A stretch of 64,000 nucleotides of DNA. It comes from Schmidtea polychroa (lineage: Eukaryota). Location: NCBI GenBank assembly GCA_044892525.1, contig CM097888.1, positions 35,588,001 to 35,652,000 on the forward strand, written 5' to 3'. Made by a program: the position numbers and the translations under genes. The notes under the pieces were generated by a model. It searched no databases and was not told the origin of the DNA. It saw nothing but the letters and a program-made list of their open reading frames with translations. Positions 2,420-24,595 of the stretch are shown here, piece by piece (the first letter of the stretch is position 1; each line of letters begins with the position of its first letter).

Positions 2420-4131
2420 TCAGAAATTACTCTCATTCTTTTTTTTCGGAATCGAAGGTTGGAATTCATTTTCATCAGTCGAAGTTATTTGTGCCGATTC
2501 GATGTTTGAAGCAGAAATATTTACATTCTGAGAGGTGGTAATAAAATCGGTTATTAACAATTGCTTCGAATTTTTTGTAAGATCTTTGTAAACTTCTTCA
2601 TATTGAGCCAAGTAGCGATTTATGTCACGTTGGAATCGTAAAGCCCTTTCTACGTTTGTGTCATTTGCTTTCTTCCCAATGCGAGTCCTTCGCGGATGAC
2701 TTTAGCAGTGAATGTTACTGGTACTAATTCCTCTTCATCAGATTTTTCAGACTCACTTTCGCAAACTAAGTTAACTAAATCATCCTCACTTAGTTCTTTA
2801 TCAGCCATTAACTCTGCGATATCATCATCAGTAAAATCATCAAAACCTTCTCCGCCCAATGAATGCGTCATCTGTACTATCTGCAAATATTCATCATTTA
2901 ACGTTGAAATGGAATGTTCATTTTTGACTACATTTGGCCACAATTTTTTCCAACAGCTATTGAGTGTTGTTTGCTTAATTGCAGTGTATGATAAGGCGAT
3001 ATGCTTCACACAGTCTAATATTGTAAAATTTTTCCAAGCACTAATAACTGTTAAAGATTCATTTTTCTCCATTTGTTCCAAAATATATATAAAGGCTTGT
3101 TTTATGTACAAAGCTTTAAAAGTAGAAATTATGCTTTGGTCCAATGGTTGTAATAATAAAGTTGTATTTTTTGGTAAAATATTTACTTCAACGTTCTCAT
3201 ATTCTAGATCTTGTGGGTGACCCGGCGCATTGTCAATTAACAAAAGCACTTTAAAAGGCAATCCCTTTGAACCTAAATATTTTTTGGCATCTGGGATAAA
3301 ACATTCATGAAACCATTCAGTAAACATTGCAGCAGTAACCCACTCTTTCTTATTAGCCCTCCAATAAACGGGAAGATTTTTGATGTTTACTCCTTTAAAG
3401 GCACGGGGCATTTTTGATTTGTTAATCACTAATGGTTTCATAATATAATCTCCTGAAGCATTGCTACAGAAAAGAATTGTTATGCGATCTTTTGCTGCTT
3501 TATGACCACTAGCCGATTTATAAAATTTTGAGACATAAGTCCTTTCAGGCATTTTTTTCCAGAATAACCCTGACTCATCAGCATTGAAAACCTGATCAGG
3601 GGTGTATGAATTGTCGTTAATAATTTCTCCAAAATTTGCTGGATATTCATGGGCTGCATCTACGTGGCCAGAAGCCAGTTCACCTTTTAATTTTAAGCTG
3701 TGTAAAGAATGTCTTATTTTAAATCTTTCAAACCAGCCATGACTTGCCAAAAAATTTGGCTTCTTTTCAGTCGAAGAAGATGGTAATTGCTCTACAATTT
3801 TTTCGTAAATTCGTACTGCTTTATTTGTTATAGCGGCCGTATCAATGGGTACTCTTTTTTGTGTTTGATCTTCTATCCAAAGCATTAACGCTTTCTCCAT
3901 TTTTTCCATTGCGATATTTCTGGTGTATGATGTTTTGCCCATACTCGTGGTATTGCCAGCTGCAACACTCTTTCTAATTGTGTTTTCATTTGTTCTAATA
4001 GTTCTTATTGTAGCTTCGTTCATGCTATATGATTTTGCAACATCTACTACTCTATCTCCCTTTCGTAAGCGATCCAAAATTTCGATTTTAGTTTCTAAAG
4101 AAATAACTTTTCTTTTAACTTCTTTCGACAT
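2420..4131 (-). pseudogene. Tigger/pogo (TIGD1-like) transposase: CENP-B-type HTH plus DDE_1 domain, C-terminal frameshift
   Basis: 493-aa ORF 4131-2650 with SHGWFERFK, FNADESGLFW, LLIDNAPGH, QPLDQ (DD30D spacing); near 2670 the frame shifts and the natural tail continues as ANDTNVERALRFQR...AQYEEVYKDL to 2420. Confidence 0.9.
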
Positions 4132-8680: not shown

Positions 8681-9465
8681 TTCAAACCAATACTTAATAT
8701 TCTTATATATTTTATTAATTTGTTCGAATAAGCAATTTAAAATCCATACTCTTTTCTTTCTTACCTGATTATCAAAGTGAACCTGTCGAGTTATAAATCT
8801 TATAAATAAACCCTTGTGGAAATGTTGCTGTAATTGATTGTTATTTCTCAACTTCGAATAATTATTTTATATTTATTTACATTGTATTTATTAGAAATTG
8901 TTTGACTTTGAATCAGTGAAGATAGCGATGTTTTTTTTTTGAGATTCACGAATTTTTGGCACAGCTTTTTCAAGTGATTTTCATATTTATTTCCCTCGAT
9001 TTTTAGGATATCATCAAATGTAAAGTGGAAGTAATATGTGATTGATCAGAGTTGTTTATGTCGCAGAATTTAATGTTTATTCCAAGTAACTTTTTTGAGA
9101 CTGACACTTGGATGTGGATAGAATTCTATGTGACAAATCTAATATTCAGCAAAAACAACCTTTGCTTTATTCGGAATTACATTGTGTTTAGACAATTGGT
9201 TTGCATTCTAATACATTTTATTTTGTGTCTTAATTTTCGATAATTTAATTTAATTCGAAAATAATTCATGTCATTTACAGAAAATTAAGTGGAATCATCT
9301 TGAAATACGTTGGAAATATTCCGCTGGTCTTTATTAATCAATTGGGAATTTTCTAAATAAATTACTAAAAATAGAAATTAATTTTTAAAAAGTATAAATG
9401 TTACTAAAAATGGAAATTTAAAATTACTATTTAAAATCTATGTTATAATGAGAAAAATAAGAATA

Positions 9466-10156
9466 TGCAGACAGGAAGTTTTTTTTACATCAACTGCATG
9501 ACTAAAAAGTCAACTGAATAATGTTGGGCTGAGCCGGAAATTTAAACGTCGAAAATATAAACTTAGGAAATTTTAACTTAGAAGGTAAGACAAATAATAT
9601 ACAAAAAAAAATAAAAACAAAATAAATAATTTAAGAATAAAACGGAACAAGAAATAAGAAAATAAGAATTAGGAAAAATAAGAATTAAAACAAAATAAGA
9701 AAATAGAAATAGGAAAATAGATCAACCAACAAAAAGAAGGAAATTTAATAAATAATGAGGAAGCTAAGGAAATAAATAGAAAAACACAATAAAAACACAA
9801 TAAAAACAAAGAAAATAAGGGAAAATAATCATAAAAACAGAAAAAATAATTAAAATAAGCGGTACTCCAATCTGATTGGTCCGCATACACGCAAAAACAC
9901 TATATATACAGACACAAGACTCATTACATTCACGGTTAATTTCAAATTACTACAGGTAAGATTTAAGCGAAAATTACATTGACGGTTAATTTCAAATTAC
10001 TACAGAGACAATCAAGACTCAAGGATCAACTCAGCGCATTCAACAAGGAATCACAACTCAAGAAAACAACAGTATCGCATACATTGAGATCAACGTTGCA
10101 GAGAGATAACGCATAATTTTTCGACTCAGCTCACAGATTCAAATTTATTAACTGCA
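9466..10156 (+). repeat. LTR-like segment
   Basis: TGCAG...CTGCA ends; A-rich block, ccaatctgattgg, tatatata, internal 32-bp duplication; no TSD found. Confidence 0.3.
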
Positions 10157-10329
10157 GTAAGGCGATTTTATTTTGTTTAGATTATAAAATATTATACGTA
10201 ATTATTTACCTATTTAGTTATTTATTTATTTGTTGCTGTTTAAATAATCATTTGCTGTAATAATCATTCGTAAATAAACGATTTATTGTAGGAGTTCATA
10301 TTTTATATGTATATGATTATTTTATAAAA

Positions 10330-11400
10330 TTTATTGAGACACGTGGCGTTGAGATGGATGGCGTTCATGATAAGAGGTGCCCTCGGAAGCTCTATCGTTG
10401 GACGTACATCGTTTCAATCACGCAGCGAGAATGGGCAGTCAAGTGAAGGTTTCTTCACGGGTTCAATCGCTGAGGGCGACCAAAAATCTTATTTGAGTAA
10501 CGGGAGTTGGATCGAAAGAGTAATTTCAGACTTATTGTAAATTAGCTATGCGATACACAGTGATTGAGGTGGACACTTTATCTGTTTTGGCACGGTTAAA
10601 AGACGTTGGGTAGCTCTGGAAAAAGTTGTGAGCATTAAAAATCGAGATCTTCAACGTAACCACTGACTGTATTCTTGGTTCGAGACCGAATTTATGCGAG
10701 AGTTAACCACTAGTCACCCGGAAAATACCTACTTCAATCGATAGCATTATTACTTTCGATTAAAAACATTATCACAGTAGATAGGAAGAAAATTTTCATT
10801 ATCAAATTAAGACATCATAATACATTTGAGTTAAAATCACGATTGTAAATTTAGTTTTCTATCACATGAATAGTTCCATCGTTGATTTGGTTTTTCATAG
10901 TCATCTTTCATTTCATCCCTGAGACTTACTCGCGTCTGGTACATCCATCGGCAGAAAGGGAAAAATATTTCAGACACTAGGAACAGTCAGGCAAAAATCC
11001 AGTTTCAGAGAGTGATGTGCGAATTAACACACTGTAATAGCGTCGCGAATTTTTCAACGTAAAAACGTGCAGATAGGCAATATCCAATTCACGCTGATAA
11101 GATCTATGAGATGGTCGATGAGAAACTTCCAGATTGGCAGAATAAATCCAATAATTTGTTAGCTCTACGTACATGCATTGATAAGAGACTAGTTAACTAC
11201 CACCCGCATAGATAAGAACTCATGAGAGAGATAGACTGTGAACACAAGGAGTTTCAATTCACACGGCATTATGTCCGATAAGTAGTGAGCAGCAGTGACT
11301 ATGGGTATCAGATAACAACTCACATGCGGTAGGGCCAAGTGGGTCATTCACAAGTATCGATTATCGAGATGAGACCGTAAGGAAATAAGCCACCTGCTCT
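10330..11400 (+). mobile_element. Degraded Gypsy-like pol (integrase/chromodomain-like) remnant
   Basis: GC-richer island; broken frames include KLPDWQNKSNNLLALRTC..YHP (integrase C-half-like) and EWAVK*RFLHGFNR*GRPKILF (chromodomain-like). Confidence 0.35.
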
Positions 11401-11937
11401 GCAATTATTCAGCTAAATAGGAGACCTCATTTTAAAGTGCAAGCATTAAGCTTAATTTTCTTAAATTACACATTGGAATAAAAACTTACTGTAAACTTTT
11501 ATATCTGTTTAATCACTGACCTGATATCACTATATCCAAATGTTGCATGTTTCCGGTATAATTAGACTGCAAGTTAAAACATTTTTTCCTTTTCGTAACA
11601 AGTAACATAAAATGTTGTTAGTGTTAACTCTAAAACTGAACACCGCGATCGTAAACAATATTAAGAAAATATTAATTCTAAAATCCTCCAAAGTTTTTAT
11701 AAAAATCGAAACAAATATTTTGTTCATTTTATTTTTGATGCTACTAGTCCGGACAAATCTTAGGTATTAAACTATTTAAATGGTCATATTATTTATTTAC
11801 GGTAATAAATGGTGTTAGAGTTAAATCATAAAATTTAGTTAATAGATTTTCCGGTGTTTACGAATGCCTTTACAGTATGATAGACTCCTGATGATCATGT
11901 TAAAGACATATTTAGGTGATGATTGTGAAATACTGAC

Positions 11938-11952
11938 GGGGGGGGGGGGGGG
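11938..11952 (+). promoter_or_regulatory. G15 tract, candidate polypurine tract before an LTR-like TGATGG start (11955)
   Basis: 15 consecutive G, then aa, then TGATGG; near-complementary CCAGCA end at 13656-13661. Confidence 0.4.
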
Positions 11953-12380
11953 AATGATGGAAAATTTTGAGATGGACTTGAACCCATAAGGGCAACAAGA
12001 GCATAGGCCTTTTGCGAAGTGTATTTCGTTCAAAATCTTAGCTCAAGTAGGGAGTAAAATAGAATAATTAATAAACAAAACTAAATCAATTAAGGGGAAT
12101 AACAAATTAAGATAAAGTGAAGATGTAGAGATAGTGTTCTAAACAGCCATAGGATAACCTTTGATAAATTATCTTAGTGCACGAAAGGGGGAAAATCAAG
12201 GAGTAGATTTAGGTAAGTGACAGATAAACCTCTGATAATCAACTATACAGGGAGAGAATTGATCTCATTAACTCATCTTGTCCTTCCTCTTGCCAGGTAC
12301 CTCACTGTAATTGGACCCTTGTAGCTAACTGACTATTGCATGTATCATTCCCTTAATTTTCTTCATTACAGCCATTCGAC

Positions 12381-13130
12381 ATGTTATCTCAGAATAAATC
12401 GGTGCTACGATCCTGCTTCTCCTGCGCAGATAAAAACGCAGTGATAAAAGATCTTCAAGCCCGGATCGGTCGATACAAGCGGAAGATCGACGAGCTGGAA
12501 GGCACATGGTTCAGCCCAGTGCAAATGAAGGAGATGCAGAAAAAACTTCATCGTAGTGAACATTGCCGGGATGCTCTAATCTCCGAGAGCCGCTCCCAAC
12601 GAAGCTTGATCAAAGAGCAATCCGAGGCACTACACAAGGTGTATGTGCAGGCGACAACGACGAGGAAAATCGTGCAAATCTCCATCCATGAAGCAGATAA
12701 TCTGTTCCCGGTGCACCACGACACCTCAGCGAAAACGTCGTCTCCATTCAAGAGGCCCTGTCGTGAGTGTGTGGAAACTGAACTCTCACCAAGTCGTCAG
12801 GATGTTATCGTCGTAGGGACTAGTAAAGTGCAGCCCAATGTTCCATCTACATCAACTCAGCCGCAAGAGAAGCGGCCAATCGTGAAACCCAAGTGCCGGC
12901 AACCCACGACGACCGAGCGTAAGAGGAGGCAGCGTGAACGAGCCTCAGTAGTATCTAACAACCCTCCAACGGGAGATCCGATCAATACTACCAACTCCCA
13001 CCCATCAATTGACTTAACTACCGGAGTCCCAGCGCGGATCATCGCAGCCACGGGAGTGACGTGGGAAGAAAATGCCGGTGAATTTTTTGACCTGGACGAG
13101 CTACTAAAAGATACCGAATGGGAGAAGTGA
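12381..13130 (+). CDS. Cassette A ORF, 249 aa: coiled coil, EGTWFSP motif, basic NLS-like cluster, acidic aromatic tail; unknown function
   Basis: Intact GC-rich ORF; ATG 10 nt after acceptor ttcttcattacag (12371); upstream donor ttag|gtaagt (12213); aataaa at 13259; shares EGTWFSP with ORF 17868-18326. Confidence 0.7.
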   Translation: MLSQNKSVLRSCFSCADKNAVIKDLQARIGRYKRKIDELEGTWFSPVQMKEMQKKLHRSEHCRDALISESRSQRSLIKEQSEALHKVYVQATTTRKIVQISIHEADNLFPVHHDTSAKTSSPFKRPCRECVETELSPSRQDVIVVGTSKVQPNVPSTSTQPQEKRPIVKPKCRQPTTTERKRRQRERASVVSNNPPTGDPINTTNSHPSIDLTTGVPARIIAATGVTWEENAGEFFDLDELLKDTEWEK

Positions 13131-13394
13131 ACAGCTGTAACGAACTACTCTTTTTTCGATCATTACCTGACATGTTTCGTCCACTTATCTTCTCATCGAT
13201 TCTCTCTCTGACAATAGTGATTCGGTTAAATTTGTATAGCTCAATGTTATAGAATTGTAATAAAATTTTAGTTTTAGTGATTGGGTTTTTATGATAACTA
13301 ACTAATAACTGTGTAAAGACGAGAGTGTATTGGTTTATTGCGTCGGGATATATGTGCATTCGTCGTACCACCAAGGAGATTGATAGTGTGCGTT

Positions 13395-13661
13395 GACATA
13401 AGTCCTTCTACCGGCAGTCGTGTGGGGAGAAGTCGAGGCCTCAGTAAGGAGTAGTTCTAAGGTAGGAATTCACCTGCTTACTGACGTCTCGCCAGCGTGG
13501 TACAGTTCCAACGTGGAGCAATCCACGGGTGCCACGTTGTAGGGTAAATTATGTGGGGCCCTCCTCAAAGTTGACAAGGGAATAGCGATTTCATGAAATG
13601 GACAATCATCCCTTAGAGCTAAGCGTAAACCAAGGAAGGTCAACTGAGTGGTGCCCCAGCA
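13395..13661 (+). ncRNA. Candidate structured RNA element, copy A
   Basis: gac..ccttctaccggca..gtc hairpin; cagtaag/cttactg stem; cgtggtac/gtgccacg stem enclosing cgtgga-GCAA-tccacg; terminal ggggc/gcccc, agttgac/gtcaact and aaggga/tccctt stems; homologous to 16934-17207 and 17469-17674. Confidence 0.6.
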
Positions 13662-14289
13662 ATAATATCATTTTTAAATTGATAATTTAGAGATCGAAAA
13701 ATAAAGAAACATAATGGTTAATGCAACCATATTCATTCTATACCTAAACTTGATTGTTAGGCATTTTCTTTTTTTATAATTATCGTTTCACCTTGAGTTG
13801 CAATAAAAACGAAAAATTTACTTGCCATCTATAACTGAAAACCGTGCGAATTCTAATACAGGACATTCATAAATCTTAATCGACCGCCTGTTAATGAATA
13901 CACTGATGATATAAATCAGGTTGGAAATCACCTTTACAATGAGTTCCACCCACGAGCTATGGAAAATTGATTTCTCCTTATTAGTCGCGTCGTTACAAGA
14001 CCTGTCTAGAATCTTGGAAATGACATCAGCTCCTAAATTCGTTACCCATAACACTCTAGATTTGATTAACCAAAATATATTGTCTGTGATTCGAAAATAT
14101 AATGACACAATAATGTTTTTTTTTCAACAAGCCCTTAATATTCATTTTCGGCTTGGAATTAAATCTATTTATCTAAGAATGTAACATTTTAAATTTTATA
14201 TTAATATTATTTTTACGGCTTTTTTCAACAAATTTTATACTACAGTAACATTTTACAAAAACATATTTATGTTATTATTCCGGAGTATA

Positions 14290-14930
14290 TTCACCATCTA
14301 TTTTAATTACTGCTTACAATTTGTTTGGCAGTCGGAAGAATCCATGAGGGTATACTTTTCTTAGATGCAATCCACTCTGATGGCGTCAACTAAGTCATAT
14401 AAGTTTTAGTAAACTTTGTTAGCGAGCCAATTTTTTAGTAATCGATTGACGTCTTAGTCTGTAGGAGTATATGGCGGATGAGGAAGCAGTTCTCAGCTTA
14501 TATTGGTGACAGATTCGTCGACAAGAAACTCAATATGTTTACGAGCATTCTCGTAGTGGAAGATGATGTTGTTCTTATCGACTTGAATGTAGCGTCAATG
14601 TGGTCAAATTGAGTCAGGTAGACGTCGATATATATATATAAAATCGCCGTTTTTCCTTATTCCACCAGTATCGCACTCTTTCGTCATCCTAATACCTATC
14701 CCTCTTTTCTCTTCAAAACTTCAAAATAACTATGGTTTATCATTAAGCAACTTCGGTACTGTATTTTAGTAAGTGTTTGAAGACAAAAAGTGAGTCTAAT
14801 TTTAAGGACTGCAAATGTTCTGACACACCTTTGGTACCCAGGCTTACCATAAAAGGTGCAGCGGTCTATTAGTCCGTTCTAATACCATTGTTACCTTAAT
14901 TGTGTTTTTCACCATCACTTTGATGGAGTC
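14290..14930 (-). mobile_element. Degraded mariner transposase fragment
   Basis: Minus frame IIFHYENARKH..*ELLPHPPYTP..LLKNWLANK matches mariner FHHDNARPH/WELLPHPPYSP; many stops. Confidence 0.65.
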
Positions 14931-15391
14931 TTTGTACTCCCTAACAAATTCGAAATAGTCAAACAATCGAGTAATGGGATTTCATTTGTTAACGAAACTC
15001 AAAACTATAGTGGCCGATGATGTTTACCTTTTTGTTGGTTAACATAACGAAATTTAGATTTAAGGTGCGATAAATTAATAAAAAGCCAAATCACAAAATA
15101 GTAAAATTTAATCTGAAGTTTAATAGTTTTTGTTGAAATTATTAGGCTCTTCATTTTGTATTTTAGTCTTTTTATGTAGAAAATTGGAATTTAAATTTGA
15201 TTTTAATATTAAATGAATTTTCACAAAGTGTTGACATTATATCAAAACTATTTAACTAAATCTTTGACATTAAAGCTACGAGCCGATTTTCTTCGATTGA
15301 ACCTTTATTTAACATTCAAGATGAAGATATAATTTAACTAAATTCTTATTTGAATATGTTTCTCTTAAAAAAATACTGGCTTTCACATTGT

Positions 15392-16065
15392 TGTTGGGCC
15401 AGAATTGAGAGTTGTTTTAATGAATCGGAAATACATAACATATGAAATCGCACCAAGTTGAATTAAAATCCATGATCATATACTAAATAACACAAACTAA
15501 GATACACAAAACATAGAGGATGAATAAAACACGTATAATAGAATAAAGGAACGCAAGAAGTTGCAATCTCCAACCCAATTAGGAGAAATATCGCATTCGA
15601 AAAATCTAAAAACTAGAAAATAAAATAATAATAAATAAAATAATCAATAATAAATTAATTAATAATACGAAATGTTTTAAATAAATAAATTTAAAATTGA
15701 CACTAAAATATAAAGTAAACTGATAAAATGATATAAAAATAAAATAAAAGTAGTAAACATATGTAAATTATAAAATTGACAAAACTAAATTGTTTAATGA
15801 AAACTAAAATAAAACCAACAAAAAATTATTTAAATAATAAAATTTATAGAACCAAATTGTTTAAATCAATGAAACTAAAATAAAATTAACTAAACTTATT
15901 TAACTTATAAAATTTATAAAACTAAATTCTTAAATTAATAAAAACTAAAATAAAACTAAAATTATTTAAATTATAAAATTTATGAAACTAAATCGTAGAA
16001 ATTAATAAAAATTAAAAAATTTTGATTAATTAAACTAATTAAATTAAAAATAAATAATTACATAC
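15392..16065 (+). repeat. LTR-family copy (TGTTGGG start) with AT-rich repeats
   Basis: First ~270 bp align with 55924-56190 (ttttaatgaatcg.aaatacata..cgcaccaagttgaat..ggaacgcaagaagttgcaatc); right end not defined. Confidence 0.6.
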
Positions 16066-16933
16066 ATTCAGGCATGCATGCAAAAGTAATTCAAAATTTC
16101 TCGCATTCTAATTGGATATAGTAGATGAGAATGCATGAATACACAGTCAAAATCAGTATAAATACTTATTGGAAATTCAGTCAGAACTAACAAGTTTAAT
16201 CTGAATTTTTTCATTATTTACCAGACATTCAGGCAGCTCTCAGTTTTCAGTTTTATGACATTTTGGTAAGTTTGATTTGATTTTTGTAATTTAATGTAAT
16301 GTCTAACTCTATGTAACATATATTTGTTGTAAGTTAATAAAATGTTATAGTAAATTTAGTCTGGTTAATTTTCTTGCTTGTTATCCTAATGTTGTGTTTT
16401 GGTTCTTTCTAATATTTATTTCGTAGTAAATTTCTAGTAATTCTTTGCTTGCATGAACATTATTTAATTTGGTATTTATGAACATTTTTATTTTTGGATG
16501 CTGATAGTCGCAGACAATTGACAAGTTTGGAACATCCAGTTCATTGATTTTTATTTTGATGCCCTCCAGCTTGGGATATGGCTGTGAGCTATTGACCGAA
16601 ATGCTGATAGTCACAGACTGTTGACCAATTTGGACCATCGATTTATAGGATAGATATGGGAAATATAGAGTAATTTTGGATGGTTTGAAGCTTTGTTTAA
16701 ATATAGGTAGTAGAGAACGGGTTCGTTTTAGAAGTACATAGGTCATAATTAGGAAATACAGGTAGATCCCTACCCAAATTTTATGAGGAGTATAAAACCA
16801 CATTTATTAACTCGGAAATAAGGGCCGATCTCTGCTCAAATTTTTGAAGAGAATTATAGAAAACAATTAGTAACGAGGACCACAGTTAAATGAATACATG
16901 ACAACACTAACAATAGAATGGATAATGAATAAT

Positions 16934-17207
16934 GACGTAAGACCTTCTATCGGCAGTCTAGAAACCGTAAGGAAAGTACATTGAGGAGTAGTTTTAGCAA
17001 TAAAGCTCACCTGCTCATTGATTTTCAACCATTGTGTACAATACCAGCATGGTCGTCGCAATGGATACACAGTAATGTATATAATGGGAACACCACCTCA
17101 CCCCACCCATCTAAGGTCCCTACACCTCTAAAGTCCCTCTCATTTAATGGTATACCACTTTTCAAATTTTTAAATTAATAATTTTTAACACTGAAGTAGG
17201 GTGGGGT
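16934..17207 (+). ncRNA. Candidate structured RNA element, copy 3
   Basis: gac..ccttctatcggca..gtc; cattgag/ctcattg; ttgtgtac/atacacag enclosing catggt-cgtc-gcaatg; terminal accccaccc/gggtggggt stem. Confidence 0.55.
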
Positions 17208-17341
17208 CTAGAATTCAAACACCCAATTTCAAATCTAAAAATTTATTTAATCTAAGCATTGAAGGTCTAGTGGACTCTAAAATAAGTGGGTATAAGCCGG
17301 TGTTGCCATTATATACACTACTGTACACAGATGGTCTAAAG

Positions 17342-17410
17342 CAGGGGTTTCAAACTCAAACTGGCCTGCGGGCTGCATTAGACTAGTATTATGAGCCGGC
17401 GGGCCGCAAC
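17342..17410. mobile_element. One end of a hAT (Buster/Charlie-like) MITE
   Basis: caggggtttcaaac terminus plus cgggccgc subterminal motifs, as in the 29597-30180 element; other end not found. Confidence 0.55.
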
Positions 17411-17468
17411 ATAAATAATTGTTTTTCAGAACATGTGGAGTCTGAAACTCCGACATTAATATTTATTT

Positions 17469-17674
17469 TGGTGGGTTACAGGTGGTTGAATGATTAAGTG
17501 CTGTTACCAGCGTAACCCAACATGCAACATTGTCTTTCCGCTTGGTACCCGTTGAGTAATCAACGTTGGTACTGTACCAAGGGTTGAGTACTCGCAAAAA
17601 GTGAGCGCATCAAGGCACTATAATTGTCGAGTGCTCCATGGGTTCACGGACTACCGATAGAAGGTGTGTGTCCG
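17469..17674 (-). ncRNA. Candidate structured RNA element, copy B
   Basis: Minus strand: ggac..ccttctatcggta..gtcc; gcact/agtgc; cttggtac/gtaccaag enclosing cgttga-ttac-tcaacg; terminal tgggttac/gtaaccca stem. Confidence 0.6.
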
Positions 17675-17867
17675 ATTTTTTAGGTCCCTTATCAAAATTG
17701 TTTTCCCAACCTTATGCACAAAACCCTCATTTCTCAGGCAATCATAAAACATATCGGATATTATTTTAGTACTACGAAATATGTATTATTTTAACAATAA
17801 AAATATTCTTTTAAGACTACAAAGTATACACAACACACTACAAGGATATATAAACCAGAATAAAAGT

Positions 17868-18326
17868 TCAACTCGGCTTGTTGGTAGAGCTGGCCAATCC
17901 CGTCGTAGACGCTTGCGATGAATTTGCTTGCCGCTCGTACTCGGCCAGCCTGGCCTTCTTCAATTTTTCCCGAATGTTTCGCCCAAGCCGTTTTCTTTTG
18001 GGCTTATTTTCGGCGGCTGGGGGATATATCGCCGCGAGTTCAACGGTCAGTGGCCGAATTTGTCTTGCCACGGCCTCCTGCACCACCTGCTCATTTCGCT
18101 CGGTCTCGAGTGCCCGCACCTGCAATTTCAGGGCGCGGATCTCCATTTGGTCCTGAGCGGCCTGTGTTTGTAGCTGGAGGATCTGGGCAGTTTTCTTCTT
18201 CATCGCTTCGGGACTAAACCAGGTCCCTTCGAACTCCCGGCATTTTCCTTTCAATTTGTCCACTCGGACTCGGAGTTCGTCAGCACGTTTCTGAGCCTGC
18301 TCTCGATCTTTACGCAGGTTCTCCAT
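17868..18326 (-). CDS. Cassette B ORF2, ~152 aa (MENLRKDREQ...): coiled coil, EGTWFSP motif, KPKRKR NLS-like cluster; unknown function
   Basis: Intact GC-rich ORF; ATG 11 nt after acceptor ctaat..ccttttag (18338); ORF-track start 18353 lies in the putative intron. Confidence 0.7.
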   Translation of the reverse strand: MENLRKDREQAQKRADELRVRVDKLKGKCREFEGTWFSPEAMKKKTAQILQLQTQAAQDQMEIRALKLQVRALETERNEQVVQEAVARQIRPLTVELAAIYPPAAENKPKRKRLGRNIREKLKKARLAEYERQANSSQASTTGLASSTNKPS

Positions 18327-18648
18327 TAGCTTGTACACTAAAAGGAGTCTCATTAGTTTTGTTTATACCAAAAAAAATTTATAGAATAAATTATTGGTAA
18401 GATTAAATAATATTGTTATTCGCGCTTATCGCTAGGCCATTTTTATAACCCCTCCATCTACCAACTGACTCATGCAACCAACAAAAAGGAAGAATACTTT
18501 ACGTAAGAACAACCACTCTACGGTTTCTAATACTCAACTATGATACTAATAAATTAGACTAAATCAAAATACTTTATTTAAACACAAACACTTGACGATA
18601 TCTAATACTAAGGGAATAGACTAGGTTATGTTAATTGTCCTCCAATAA

Positions 18649-19014
18649 TCACGACTGATGTTTGCGGGGCCTCCCTCTCTTTCGGGGAGTTGCTTCGGCT
18701 TCTTCGAGTTCCTCCAGGGACACTCCTTCTCGCTTGGCCCGGATTTGGGCCTCTATTTTCTTTAGTCGAATCTGTGCGGCTTCCACGTCCCAGGCCGCTT
18801 GATCTCGAGCCTCCTGCAACCAATTATTCTCCGGCTCCACCTTCACCCATGCCGGGGCATCCACTTCGGGGCCCGTCCGGATTACTCGAGCTGCGCAATC
18901 CAGGTCCCTTCCCTGACCCCACCGATGTATATGGTGCCAGATGTACCGGGTCCGGAGACGGGTGATCGTCTGCTGGTCAGTACCCTCGTCACTGCTAGAG
19001 CTAGATTGCGACAT
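18649..19014 (-). CDS. Cassette B ORF1, 121 aa, C-terminal AT-hook (TPRKRGRPRK); unknown function
   Basis: Intact GC-rich ORF; ATG 2 nt after acceptor tatttatattacag (19017); upstream donor gagag|gtaagc (19536). Confidence 0.7.
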   Translation of the reverse strand: MSQSSSSSDEGTDQQTITRLRTRYIWHHIHRWGQGRDLDCAARVIRTGPEVDAPAWVKVEPENNWLQEARDQAAWDVEAAQIRLKKIEAQIRAKREGVSLEELEEAEATPRKRGRPRKHQS

Positions 19015-19906
19015 GTCTGTAATATAAATATTAAGACCGTGTGCAGCCCGTGTGACTTATAAATTTAAAGTACGATAAAATATACCACATTTTACACAAA
19101 TAGTGCATTAATCACCAAAGTTATTAATATGTATATATATTCAACAATTAATCACCAAGGTTATCCCAATCAATGCCTATACATTTAATAATTAACCATC
19201 AAAGCTATCATAATTAATATATATACATTTAACGGGAAATTTTCGATTTAATTTATTGGGTATCCTGTTAACTAACTAATGGAAAGAAAAATTTTATCAT
19301 CCTTTTAATTAATCAAATGAAAGAAAAAAAATTTTTTTCAATGTTGAGTTTTAATACTAGAAAGTTTATGCCCCGAGCGATAATTCTCCAAAAATCACTT
19401 TGTTTTAAATCATTATTTTATTCACCAAAAGTTATTTACCACTAGTTGGTAATTTAAAAATTATCGAATTACTACTGAATTCGGGCACGCCGGGGTGATG
19501 GGTATTAGCGACAAGCTTAGTTTCTCGTTTGCTTACCTCTCCCTTGGTTGTGTTCATCATGAATGGTACAGTCGACTTTTATGCATTTGAGGTAATTCAT
19601 TTATTTACCGTAAATTTTGATTTCCAGGAATGTTGGATGATAACTTTTCCTGGTTGGAGATGGATGAGCCTAGTTTTGGGAGATCATCCTACGATTCATA
19701 ATTTTTGATTCTTAGTGGCTTGGTAATATGATTTGTTGTTCATAATAAAAGAACAATCTTATGTTTTTATTAATAGTAATTTAATCTTCTAATAAACGAA
19801 GTTATATATTTGCCATTCATTCAGGATTTAAAGGGGGTAGTTTATATGTTGGATCAGGTACTCTCACCCATATCCTCAGCTAACCTAGATGGTGTTAACA
19901 TTTTCT

Positions 19907-19923
19907 AGGGGGAGGGGTGTTGC
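19907..19923 (+). promoter_or_regulatory. Candidate polypurine tract and LTR start
   Basis: agggggagggg directly followed by TGTTGC, the usual PPT-TG junction of LTR retrotransposons; matching CA end not identified. Confidence 0.5.
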
Positions 19924-20079
19924 TAAAAATAACTTTCTAGTATTTCAGTCATTCCTATTAGTTCAAAAAGGTTGATTCCAAATTTAACTCCGGGGGGAAA
20001 TCCTAAATCAATATTTGATTTAGATTTTTATTTTTGTGAACTACAACTTATGAATAGGGACAATGATAGTATTAGCGAT

Positions 20080-20131
20080 GATAATAACGACAATAATAAT
20101 AATAATAGTAATAATGATAATAATAATAATA

Positions 20132-20164
<33 letters not shown>

Positions 20165-20413
20165 GCAATATTAATAGTAATATTNNNNNNNNNNNNNNNN
20201 NNNNNNNNNNNNNNNNNNNNNNNNNNNNNNNNNNNNNNNNNNNNNNNNNNNNNNNNNNNNNNNNNNNNNNNNNNNNNNNNNNNNNNNNNNNNNNNNNNNN
20301 NNNNNNNNNNNNNNNNNNNNNNNNNNNNNNNNNNNNNNNNNNNNNNNNNNNNNNNNNNNNNNNNNNNNNNNNNNNNNNNNNNNNNNNNNNTATCAATCAT
20401 AATATTGATAGTG

Positions 20414-20444
<31 letters not shown>

Positions 20445-21190
20445 GAATAATAATAAGAATAAAGATGATACTGATACTAATAATAATAATGGTGACGATT
20501 TAGAATGATAACTGGAAATATAATCACTTTCAATTCATACTTTATAATTTTAACAAAATTAATTTACATTTCCAATTTTAACGTCGAATGCTTCGATGTA
20601 AGCTATGGTAGCTACTTGTACTTTATATCTTCATGGTCAAATTTTGGTTATAGCTAATTATAATTCATTTCTACATTTATACTTTGTAGTTATACCTAGG
20701 TACAAATTATATTTTATAATACGACTTTACCTCAAATTATTCGTATTCCCTGCTCTTATAGTTAGAACTTATAATTATTTATAATTTATATTCCTAAATA
20801 TTTTATATATAACTAATTATAATTTATAACTTTATATTTTATAATTTATAATTTTGCTTTACCATTTATAATTTTATATTTTGTAGTTTATAAATTTATA
20901 TTTTATAATTGCCAATTTTACATTTTATGATTTATAGTTTTTAATTTTTTCAATTTATAAGTTTATATTCTATAATTTCTAATTTTATCTTTTATAGTTT
21001 TATGTTTTTCAATTTATGAATTTGTACTTTGAAATTTTACGTTTTCTATTTACAATTTCGTAGTTTGTAATCTATAAATTTATATTTTATAATCCGTAAT
21101 TTTATGCTTTATAAATAGTAATTCTAGGTTCTACAATTTATCATTTTATTACTTCACCACTCGTCATTTCATAATTCAGGGTTTATAATT
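20080..21190. repeat. (AAT)n microsatellite around an assembly gap (20185-20390), followed by degenerate ttataatttt-type repeats
   Basis: Direct reading; source of the poly-N/I/L ORFs. Confidence 0.9.
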
Positions 21191-22039
21191 TTATAGTCGA
21201 CTCGTATACTTCTTTATGAGTACCCTTTTTGATCAACATTGTCTTCTAAAATTATTTGCAGATTTCTTGGTACTATTAGGGTATAATTTCAGAATATTGA
21301 CGAGTCTACAGTCTATACATAACTAGTTCTAAGTTAATTGATCCTTATGCTACAATTTATTTACTACTATCCCCATCTAAAACTTATTATCAAGACTTCT
21401 CCATTATCAATTTATATTTTCAGGGTCGATATAATTTATATCTAAAATCTCATAATTATCTATAACTTGCATTTTGATTATAATTAGTAAATTTTATAAT
21501 AAGTACTTATATCTTTATAAATATTTAAGATGGGCGCTTGAATTAATAGATCTGTAATTTAATCGGTTAGATTTGTAATATCTATAGGTAGATTGAATTT
21601 ATTCGCATAGTAATAAATCTCGAAGTCCCAACTAGATGAGGTTATACCCACACATATGCCGGACACTTTATCATTTCTATTACTTCAGTTACTACAAATT
21701 TCTATTACCAAAATCGGATTCGGCATATGTCTGAGTACAACTGGAATGGCTATTATTGCTCAACCGACTTCATTAAGGTGATTGCAGAATTGTGTAAGGT
21801 TAGGTATGAGTTCTACTCAGATTAAGACCTTATTGTAGAGATATTTGACATTGATTTTTAATGTTGATTTTAAATTTGTATTACGTACAAAGTCGGGAAG
21901 AATATTGCTTCCATGGCCCCACTGTGACCACTTCCACAAACCTTAGTGTTGAGTGTTGAGTCAACCATTTACGGTCGACCTTACATAAACACAAAGAGTC
22001 AGACGGAGGTTTTCCTCGACCTAACTCCATGGCAGGACC

Positions 22040-23028
22040 ATGAAGTAGTTCGACCTCCGAAGGACCCGAACAAAAAAAAGTCGTATAGTATCGATCAATA
22101 TAGTACGAATAATGCATCTTGGTAGATTGCATAAAAAATTTTATTCGATATTCACGAATGCAGGACGGAATAGCGACGCACAGTGACGCCGCTGATCATT
22201 CATATTTATCTAAATAACAACGAATTTAGTAAGAATAATTTAATTATAGAAATGTGTTCATTAAAATAATTACATACATGGTTAACATAAAAACAATGCA
22301 ATCAAAAAAAAATACCCACTATCAGTTTCCTTCAAAATTTGGTCAACAAAAAATTATATATACTATTATATATACCTATTTTGTACACGTGTATGTATTG
22401 ATACAGTAAAACAAACTCGAATTCTTTTTATTCCAGAATTTTCTATTTAGCGATTTTGCTATTTTTAATGGCAATTTTTGTGCCATAATTTTTGTTTTTA
22501 TTTTTATATTTTTATTTTTTAATTATTTTTCGTTAATTTGCCGTCCATGATGGATTTGGAACGGTTCCAGAACATTCTATTTTATTTTTAATACAATTTT
22601 CATTTTAACTGATGTTTTATGAATTTCTTTTTGTAGATTTTTTATTTTTAATACTAATTTATTTATTTTATCTAATTTTTATTATTCTAGTTGGCTTTTG
22701 TGATGGTCATCGCCATTTTTGTGGAATGTTCTGGGTTTTTCTGGAATATTTTACTGTTTCTACTCTCTTTTAAGTTATTCGAGTCTGTTTTTGTTTATCT
22801 GTGTTTATTTGGTTATTTTCGAGTTCTATTTTGCATAACCTCTTGCTTTTGGTATAATTTTATTTAATTTCTGTGTTTTAGGTTTATGTTGTTTTTCCTT
22901 TAATTACTATTGTTTATTTGATGTAATTTTAATATTTAACTATACTTTGTGCTTTTTTACTTGCTGTGTACCTACACATTTCGGTCATAATTAGAAGTTT
23001 GGGTCTAGAAATCATTTCTAGCCCAACA
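22040..23028 (-). repeat. LTR-like segment (TGTTGGGCTAG start on minus strand)
   Basis: Same start motif as the LTR at 55924; A-rich body; possible CA|TGGTCC junction near 22040; left boundary uncertain. Confidence 0.4.
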
Positions 23029-23076
23029 ATTTAATTAAAAACTCAACAAAACTAAAAAACATTTTTTTATTATTAA

Positions 23077-23077
<1 letters not shown>

Positions 23078-23140
<63 letters not shown>
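23078..23140. repeat. (AAT)21 microsatellite
   Basis: Perfect trinucleotide run. Confidence 0.97.
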
Positions 23141-23141
<1 letters not shown>

Positions 23142-23800
23142 TGTATAACGTCATATGTATAAATAAAAATAATTAAAAAGATAAGTTTTAATTTATACAG
23201 CCAATTATGATTTTAATTGTTAAATAAGTTTGGTTAAATTACAAATCTATGTATTTTCGTTGCGGGCGTTCAAAGAGTCGATTTAACACTTACAATTACC
23301 CCTAACACTTTTGAAAAATAAAATGAAACACCCCTTAGCGACCAACATTGTTATGAAATTCATTTTCAGTTCACTAATCATGTTAAAAAAATTTTAAACT
23401 CAGATTATTCGAAGAAATAAACTTGTTTAATATTGCACTGACATTTTTGGTTAGCAAATAACTCAGATCAACAAGAAACCGACAATTTTCGAAATTTATT
23501 TTAAACTAAAACTAAAATCCTAATTCTACAAATAAGGTTAAAAATTTAACAAACATATACATTACTCATATGTAAAATCATAAATTCATTTAATTCAGTC
23601 AATTTCAAATGACAAATAGAAATATGTGCACAAAATCCTTGAAATCATTATCTCATGTTTGGAGTAGATGAAGGTAAATTAGATTCACCCAGTCTAAATT
23701 CTCTGTAATAGTTTCTCATTAATAGTTAAGCTTACATTCATGTCTAAAATCTAATTAGTTAGGATAATGAGACCCTCAATAGAATTTGAACATGAATTAA

Positions 23801-23871
23801 CACGTTGACGGACACTTGCGTCTATAGCCGTCATATAGCCATATATAATTTTCCATCTGTCCGTCAATGTG
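23801..23871. mobile_element. 71-bp piggyBac-type miniature element
   Basis: TTAA on both flanks (23797-23800, 23872-23875); 14-bp TIR cacgttgacggaca / tgtccgtcaatgtg with 1 mismatch. Confidence 0.75.
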
Positions 23872-24595
23872 TTAATTACTAATTTATTTAAGTACTAAAT
23901 TAATTTATTAGGAGCATATCCAGCAACAAATCGACCAAAGTACACGAAAACACTAAACACGTGAATAGATTTTGCGATGAATAAATCATGAATCTGGAAA
24001 ACTTACTAAATGAATACGAAATATCATAATAATTGGATTAGTAACCAAATATGATTGCGGAAAGAATCATATATTTATTTGAAGAGCGCAATGAAACAGC
24101 TTGCAAAGAAATTATTAAACAAAAGAAAAGAAAATTATGAGAAACCATAATTAAACAGTAAGTTGAAAAAAGAAAGAACTTAAAATTGTGGTTTGTAAAA
24201 TGTGGAAACAAATAAAAATTTGAAATTTTCATTAGAAAATTTGACATTATTGTGTCACTTATTTAAATAATCTATTCGTATTGTCAATATACTAACTTTA
24301 GGGTTTTGATGAAGTATAACGATTGCTTTGAAGTATTTTAAAATGGTTTCTTATTTAAATATTACAAATTAAAATATACTACAAAAATTTGATCTTTTAA
24401 TTTAAAATATTTTATTAAAATCAAAAATACACTTCTTGAAATTTAATTATTTCCATAAAAGTCGTGTTTGTTTTAATAATTATTTCTTTTAAAATTAGTA
24501 TATCATATAAAAATATTGTTATTTTTAAAAACAATTTCAATTTTTATATTAAATGGAAAACAATTACCGACTTGGTATTATTTTTAATAGTATAG

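Follow-up and report, generated by a model that had tools for sequence, protein, structure and literature searches.

A 5,560-bp repeat at positions 17469-23028 of the 64,000-nucleotide stretch analyzed here (hereafter the window; Schmidtea polychroa, assembly GCA_044892525.1, contig CM097888.1, positions 35,588,001 to 35,652,000) is one solo long terminal repeat (LTR) of a Burro-type giant Ty3/gypsy retrotransposon, and the whole of a cassette of two open reading frames (ORFs), ORF1 and ORF2, lies inside it, in the sense orientation relative to gag-pol. On balance we favor the view that the LTR is a self-contained two-gene unit whose products regulate the element's own RNA production. A preliminary description of this DNA had instead taken the two ORFs for antisense accessory genes of a nonautonomous element, with an LTR starting at position 19918.

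The stretch that carries the cassette is a high-copy repeat in its own genome. The best matches there, 97-98% identical to the repeat in the window, stop at 17469, and the other limit of the repeat is 23028. The TG...CA ends carry short inverted repeats, the target-site duplication directly flanks one LTR, and all five sister copies examined have sharp common ends, each with its own distinct 4-bp target duplication. A 5,560-bp unit with TG...CA ends and a 4-bp duplication, found in the window and in the five sisters alike, is therefore a solo LTR. The features recognized in and near it are the following.

17465-17468: target-site duplication ATTT, left
17469-23028, minus strand (the element's sense strand): solo LTR of a Burro-type giant Ty3/gypsy element, 5,560 bp, TG...CA ends
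23029-23032: target-site duplication ATTT, right
22375-23028, minus: A-rich conserved 5' block of about 0.65 kb, from column identity; probable unique 3' (U3) region
22367-22374, minus: TATA box, predicted promoter, conserved in position some 650 nt from the 5' end of the LTR
22320-22366, minus: exon 1 region; in most copies a leader of 11-14 residues in phase 1, with A as last base
22314-22319, minus: major splice donor D1, intron start at 22319; used in the processed copy
19017-22319, minus: intron from D1 to acceptor 1, 3,303 nt including 206 N; variable, with microsatellites
19907-19931, minus: purine run and TGTTGC internal motif; acceptor-like in the sense direction, with 19923 as last intron base, followed by a C run
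19531-19537, minus: D2, secondary donor-like site, GT or GC
19017-19019, minus: acceptor 1 (YAG), 2 nt before the ORF1 ATG
18649-19014, minus: ORF1, 121 residues; Ser/acidic start, conserved aromatic helix, long helix, C-terminal AT-hook-like motif
18573-18578, minus: AATAAA, candidate poly(A) signal after ORF1, its position differing among subfamilies
18338-18340, minus: acceptor 2 (YAG), then an invariant TG, in 36/36 copies
17868-18337, minus: ORF2 coding exon; two long helices split at an EGTWFSP motif, then a basic segment
17469-17709, minus: conserved terminal block at the unique 5' (U5) end, followed by the primer-binding site in full-length copies
9522-13661, plus: second solo LTR, 4.1 kb, with an ATAA duplication, from another giant family

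Orientation follows from the primer-binding site, which we take to resemble the 3' end of tRNA-Pro and which abuts the 17469 end at 228 exact junctions in the genome, compared with 0 in the control. Of five such junctions examined, two belonged to complete elements, 34.2 and 36.3 kb long, each with a pair of LTRs and a target duplication. Both belong to related subfamilies, their ORF proteins being 66-84% identical to those of the window, and in the full-length elements the polyprotein is on the strand of both LTR ORFs. Because the primer site abuts 17469, the two ORFs are sense and inside the LTR. In the first full element, a Pfam search run on two abutting pieces of the polyprotein (3,107 and 1,680 residues) found zinc knuckles, MATH, a viral fusion glycoprotein, protease, reverse transcriptase, RNase H, integrase, and ankyrin domains, with the fusion glycoprotein between gag and pol, as in the Burro domain order. 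A TRAF ORF and a BIR-RING ORF (BIR, PF00653, E = 1e-15) lie downstream in the internal region. Of the segments known from Burro/GYPSM1, Pfam reported none of the BCL2-like, SUMO-like, or dUTPase-like ones at E 0.01; no profile-profile search was made. No homologue of ORF1 or ORF2 was found among the internal ORFs of three full elements.

Here and below, comparisons with published systems refer to the portions of the cited texts that were available to us. Burro/GYPSM1 elements of planarians are giant gypsy-like LTR retrotransposons of more than 30 kb (PMC6431247), described with a polyprotein of about 4,800 residues and with accessory ORFs; the Gag zinc knuckles, MATH, fusion glycoprotein, protease to integrase series, and ankyrin domains of that polyprotein recur in the elements examined here, except that BIR sits here in a separate downstream ORF. 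By length and domain content as described there, the parent matches an autonomous Burro/GYPSM1-type family, a match that by itself points to a planarian host. The available text treats domains and accessory ORFs and, in those portions, mentions no genes or introns within the LTR. The repeat in the window is thus a solo LTR of an autonomous family and not an element that lost gag-pol, as had been proposed, although the absence of gag and pol from 17469-19907 was correctly noted. The LTR pair of one full element (L095/L098) shows complete identity over 4,324 bp, evidence that its family was mobile in recent times. Another candidate full element, at C1:139.32-139.36 Mb, was rejected, the locus being rearranged. 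At 39.42-39.47 Mb of the same contig (G000:C1; L039, L040), the LTR, primer site, and a shorter internal part form a tandem array with a 15.8-kb period; the internal part has no long sense ORF, and the array is either a deleted derivative or a local amplification. Within the window, 15392-17072 (plus strand) is the remnant of a further repeat that starts with the same LTR-type end and is 73-89% identical to other loci.

The purine run at 19907-19917 and the TGTTGC at 19918-19923, which had been read as a polypurine tract and 3' LTR junction, are both present, and the run with TGTT(A/G)C is conserved in 11 of the 16 copies checked, as would suit antisense accessory genes transcribed from a 3' LTR at 19918 in a nonautonomous element. 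However, the copies run straight through this point, with no repeat boundary at 19918; the TG is absent from two of the 11, and one element whose LTRs are identical does not have the motif at all. The primer site and polyprotein give a sense orientation, and we regard the antisense model as refuted by the absence of a boundary and by the primer site. An 11-purine run followed by TG occurs eight times in the window. In the full elements, where the ORFs had been expected antisense between integrase and the 3' LTR, they are sense and in the LTRs, so the analogies with HTLV-1 HBZ and with plant antisense ORFs fail: HBZ and the Retand/Grande ORFs are likewise kept in most copies and suspected of being nuclear regulators, but they run antisense in the interval from pol to the 3' LTR (PMC11963269). 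At the true junction of internal region and 3' LTR, no purine-rich tract is found in the preceding 40 nt (L071, L095, L099, L194, L196, L199). A GC-rich inverted-repeat motif, common to both Burro families of the window, stands at this junction (11 occurrences), and plus-strand priming may be atypical given this motif in place of a purine tract.

On the evidence of their substitution patterns, ORF1 and ORF2 are real genes under purifying selection. Simple counting with 14 intact representatives from different subfamilies gave a median ratio of nonsynonymous to synonymous substitution (dN/dS) of 0.16 for ORF1 (maximum 0.33; 87 usable of 91 pairs) and 0.10 for ORF2 (maximum 0.39; 55 usable of 91 pairs, 36 being saturated). 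DNA of the ORFs is 66-92% identical to the window-type copy, compared with 43-63% for flanking noncoding sequence. An initial search of the genome for ORF1 returned 2,383 candidates, and 137 of the 150 best matches were stop-free, best matches being biased toward intact copies. Read from its own ATG at 18326, which 11 of 36 copies do not have, ORF2 spans 17868-18326 on the minus strand.

The signals that would express these genes are conserved across the LTR copies, of which 38 were examined and 36 had both ORFs placed (L176 and L184 were left out). The TATA box at 22374 closes the 0.65-kb block at the 5' end of the LTR, where mean column identity is 0.78-0.96 across 16 other copies and falls after the TATA; a predicted promoter at this position has good support. 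Donor D1 is found about 75-85 nt past the TATA in 49 of 50 distinct sequences, many of them near-identical, and the base at -1, which lies outside the search motif, is A in all 49 donor-bearing sequences. The leader is open in phase 1 in 38 of the 50, and its lengths (34, 37, or 43 nt) differ by multiples of 3. Acceptor 1 is YAG in 36/36 copies and precedes the ATG by 2 nt in 35; at acceptor 2 all 36 have YAG with TG directly after it, and the codons behind this acceptor are conserved even in the 11 copies without ORF2's own ATG. Across 13 divergent copies neither acceptor AG is ever lost, and every other noncoding AG in those alignments is kept in at most seven. A phase-1 leader fits both acceptors, and the terminal A of exon 1 with the TG after acceptor 2 would form an A|TG start codon for ORF2; the predicted D1-to-acceptor-2 splice and the start codon it assembles have good support.

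Several elements of this picture were already in the preliminary description. Its donor GAGAG|GTAAGC (intron from 19536), acceptor 1 at 19017 with an ATG at 19014, and acceptor 2 at 18338 with an ATG at 18326 and CTAAT at 18356-18352 are all found in place, and its assignment of the sequence to an LTR retroelement with two real accessory genes and true acceptors is borne out. Alternative splicing from one upstream donor also remains the best model, but the main donor is at 22319 (in 49/50) and not at 19536, which is missing from about one third of copies; the D2 block is present in 23/38 by motif and in 26/38 by alignment. The CTAAT branch-like motif is kept in only 11 of the 35 copies listed in full. 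Possibly the segment 19922-19537 serves as an optional noncoding exon starting at the acceptor-like site of 19923. A coding first exon starting from an ATG at 19600, which the 19536 donor would join in phase to either acceptor, was rejected as a general feature, as only the window's subfamily has ATG there. Beyond the LTR, accessory ORFs past integrase (BIR-RING; a long coiled coil) begin 0-3 nt after an acceptor-like AG (L096:3-2697, L100, L103), which suggests that they may likewise be reached by splicing; at the polyprotein start no clear acceptor in phase with D1 was found.

Splicing from D1 to acceptor 1 is documented by a genomic copy. A 2,242-bp solo LTR with its own 4-bp duplication, the 50th of the distinct sequences, has exon 1 joined to acceptor 1, and an identical twin lies on a small contig. 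In nine of 12 close relatives examined (92-97% identical), both sites were recognized, and a GT...AG intron of 3,040-3,915 nt separates them. The intron is flanked by a microhomology of 6 nt, yet a deletion by way of this repeat would have kept a G, and the junction does not have it; the intron loss therefore corresponds precisely to splicing. Most simply, the 2,242-bp LTR goes back to a spliced RNA that was copied by reverse transcription and inserted into the genome. Sequence-run contigs placed on 17300-23200, from four runs of which three are presumed RNA, showed no canonical joint among the 15 listed of 26, and one run had an excess over 22400-23000, its loose ends rich in T, which internal priming explains equally; neither was used as evidence.

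Under the regulatory reading that we favor, transcription would start about 25-30 nt past the TATA at 22374, and the short exon 1 would be spliced alternatively, acceptor 1 yielding an AT-hook protein and acceptor 2 a coiled-coil protein whose start codon is completed by the last A of exon 1. Unspliced RNA from the 5' LTR would continue through the primer site and serve as genomic RNA. The ORFs would then lie, with moderate support, in the R/U5 (repeat and unique 5') part of the LTR, from which it would follow that the first product of reverse transcription (strong-stop DNA) is near 4.9 kb and that poly(A) addition in the 5' LTR has to be suppressed. A somewhat unlikely arrangement, which concerns position only and is compatible with any functional reading, is a very long U3 holding the ORFs in a position like that of MMTV sag: genomic RNA would start near 17700, and the 22374 TATA would be an internal promoter for accessory mRNAs only. 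That arrangement needs no 4.9-kb strong-stop DNA; the last 240 nt, moreover, are the conservation peak of the 3' half of the LTR, and a splice in the 3' LTR part of the RNA could also give the processed copy. Yet no TATA common to all subfamilies is seen between ORF2 and the terminal block, and the 22374 TATA ends the conserved block at the LTR 5' end, a placement found in both families. As for the structured element previously placed after the EGTWFSP ORF, the terminal 241 nt do fold, but only modestly (z = -1.6), with compensatory change at 3 of 56 pairs.

By analogy, the ORF1 and ORF2 products are most likely nuclear regulators, one with an AT-hook and the other with a coiled coil and basic tail. 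The AT-hook-like motif of ORF1 occupies residues 110-120; of 18 aligned members, 8 match it at E 0.1 or below, and its GRP core is kept in nearly all full-length copies listed. A structure model of ORF1 has helices at 10-32 and 65-96 (mean pLDDT 67); that of ORF2 has two long helices interrupted at EGTWFSP, with the basic segment after them. Because no relatives or significant structural match were found, roles can be assigned to these proteins by analogy only. Early spliced regulators of complex retroviruses promote the survival or export of intron-retaining RNA. In the least certain steps of our proposal, ORF1 would bind AT-rich DNA through its AT-hook and act on LTR transcription or chromatin, and ORF2 would dimerize by its coiled coil, with the basic segment aiding survival or export of intron-retaining RNA.

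The same anatomy could serve other ends. As replication cofactors, ORF1 might tether the integration complex to AT-rich chromatin and ORF2 might be a particle or trafficking component; an AT-hook with a coiled coil resembles integration-tethering factors, and the genes are under strong purifying selection and present in both LTRs of autonomous copies. Separate spliced LTR mRNAs, outside the 4,800-residue polyprotein, would not favor copackaging, however, and we consider this role quite improbable. Alternatively, the proteins might act on the host, blunting piRNA or chromatin silencing or altering cell survival in the manner of TRAF and IAP-type cargo. An AT-hook can, as is generally known, target chromatin at large, the internal region carries TRAF and BIR-RING accessory ORFs, and animals that lose the PIWI protein SMEDWI-2 show raised levels of Burro RNA (PMC8532177). 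The LTR ORFs are nonetheless not recognizable as captured host genes, and their place directly behind a promoter and major donor fits early regulators; host-directed action seems to us unlikely.

A number of observations weigh against the regulatory reading itself. The representatives used for dN/dS were picked as intact, and the copies are related, so that counts are not independent. Pfam scores the ORF1 AT_hook at 15.5 bits, under the gathering cut-off of 17.4. Neither protein has a relative in protein collections, PDB sequences, Atlas, or viral structures, one collection having been searched at near lengths only and one with the ORF1 profile only, and the fold search having covered ORF1; the sole exception is one weak generic coiled-coil match (E 0.003). 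The splice could occur in the 3' LTR part of the RNA, the R/U5 placement resting on the position of the TATA. An early stop cuts the leader peptide in 8 of 50 sequences. In the window copy itself, the segment behind the TATA that would hold the initiator and the ATG of the leader is missing, and D1 is off the donor consensus; with this damage it may be silent, though both its ORFs are intact. The processed copy represents one locus (plus the identical contig copy) and records D1 to acceptor 1 only. A genome search for a processed copy with D1 joined to acceptor 2 gave 0 matches, as did searches for the 19536 donor joined to acceptor 1 or to acceptor 2 (0 and 0), null results that are weak for such rare events. 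No spliced RNA read was seen.

The second solo LTR of the window (9522-13661) belongs to a family that repeats the design of TATA, short exon, donor, and acceptor-led ORF. It has a TATA near 9901 (about 360-380 nt into the LTR in this family); some 55 nt beyond lies a strong donor, and a single ORF of 249 residues (12381-13130) is led by an acceptor. This ORF bears the EGTWFSP coiled coil and, among 125 ORFs compared with the ORF2 profile, gave a match at E 1.8e-12. Copies of 9522-13661 are often paired at a spacing of about 26 kb, the two members being the LTRs of a full element. At two loci of this family (L201, L202), a second, diverged EGTWFSP-type ORF occurs, which suggests that the gene may have been duplicated within the LTR. 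An Rfam search over 9000-24000, which covers both LTRs, gave one match, taken as chance.

The regulators of foamy viruses are encoded internally. As in the present LTR, the foamy virus major donor lies in the LTR shortly past the start and upstream of the poly(A) signal, where it solves the problem of avoiding poly(A) addition in the 5' LTR (PMC3694450); the same need would arise here, but unlike in foamy viruses the acceptors and ORFs are also within the LTR. MMTV sag is likewise a conserved protein gene in an LTR, and hence in solo LTRs (PMC12548423), although it is one gene in U3, whereas here two genes lie past the predicted promoter with donor and acceptors all in the LTR; no sequence relation between the LTR ORFs and sag was found. 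In Drosophila errantiviruses such as ZAM and Beagle, the env ORF is spliced to a short upstream peptide, and in the springer subclade the leader gives the AU of the start codon (bioRxiv 10.1101/2023.08.03.551782), where exon 1 would here give the A; the errantivirus target is env at the 3' end, whereas here it is in the LTR. Mammalian ERVL/MaLR solo LTRs provide promoter, AUG, and splice donor (PMC5538554), as here, but are described without a splice acceptor, whereas this LTR has two acceptors and complete ORFs. In the literature consulted, which included PMC8532177 and PMC11410931, no single LTR was described as holding a promoter, a donor, two acceptors, and two ORFs together, though the original Burro paper may show these ORFs. 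The kind of element (Burro), LTR-encoded genes, and first-exon LTRs are thus already known, and it is the predicted full two-gene spliced cassette in one LTR that was not found described.

Solo LTRs are usually regarded as the remnants of promoters; in this case every intact copy would code for proteins, and an abundant repeat class of this genome would encode two orphan proteins under strong selection. If the proposal is true, Burro would be a retrotransposon with a retrovirus-like splicing program, a new location for accessory genes, and an unusually long first step of reverse transcription. More speculatively, and with distinctly less confidence than we place in the regulatory unit itself, Burro could be a complex retroelement with its regulatory genes in the transcribed LTR ahead of the primer site. 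The solo LTRs, many hundreds to thousands of them, would then each be a full cassette of two genes and provide trans-acting regulators for full-length elements and host chromatin, with a 4.9-kb strong-stop DNA and a splice choice that switches between a DNA-binding and an RNA-handling protein. The ORFs also offer small, specific RNAi targets for control of Burro, whose silencing by PIWI is already studied.

Elsewhere in the window, two DEAD-box helicase ORFs face each other (49204-50490, plus; 53837-54754, minus) and are 74% complementary over 937 nt, to all appearances an inverted gene duplication. A Tc5/pogo-type transposase ORF lies at 2650-4131 (minus) and a broken set of transposase-like ORFs at 44292-45909 (plus), and 59430-61332 is a tandem array of 159 copies of a 12-nt unit.

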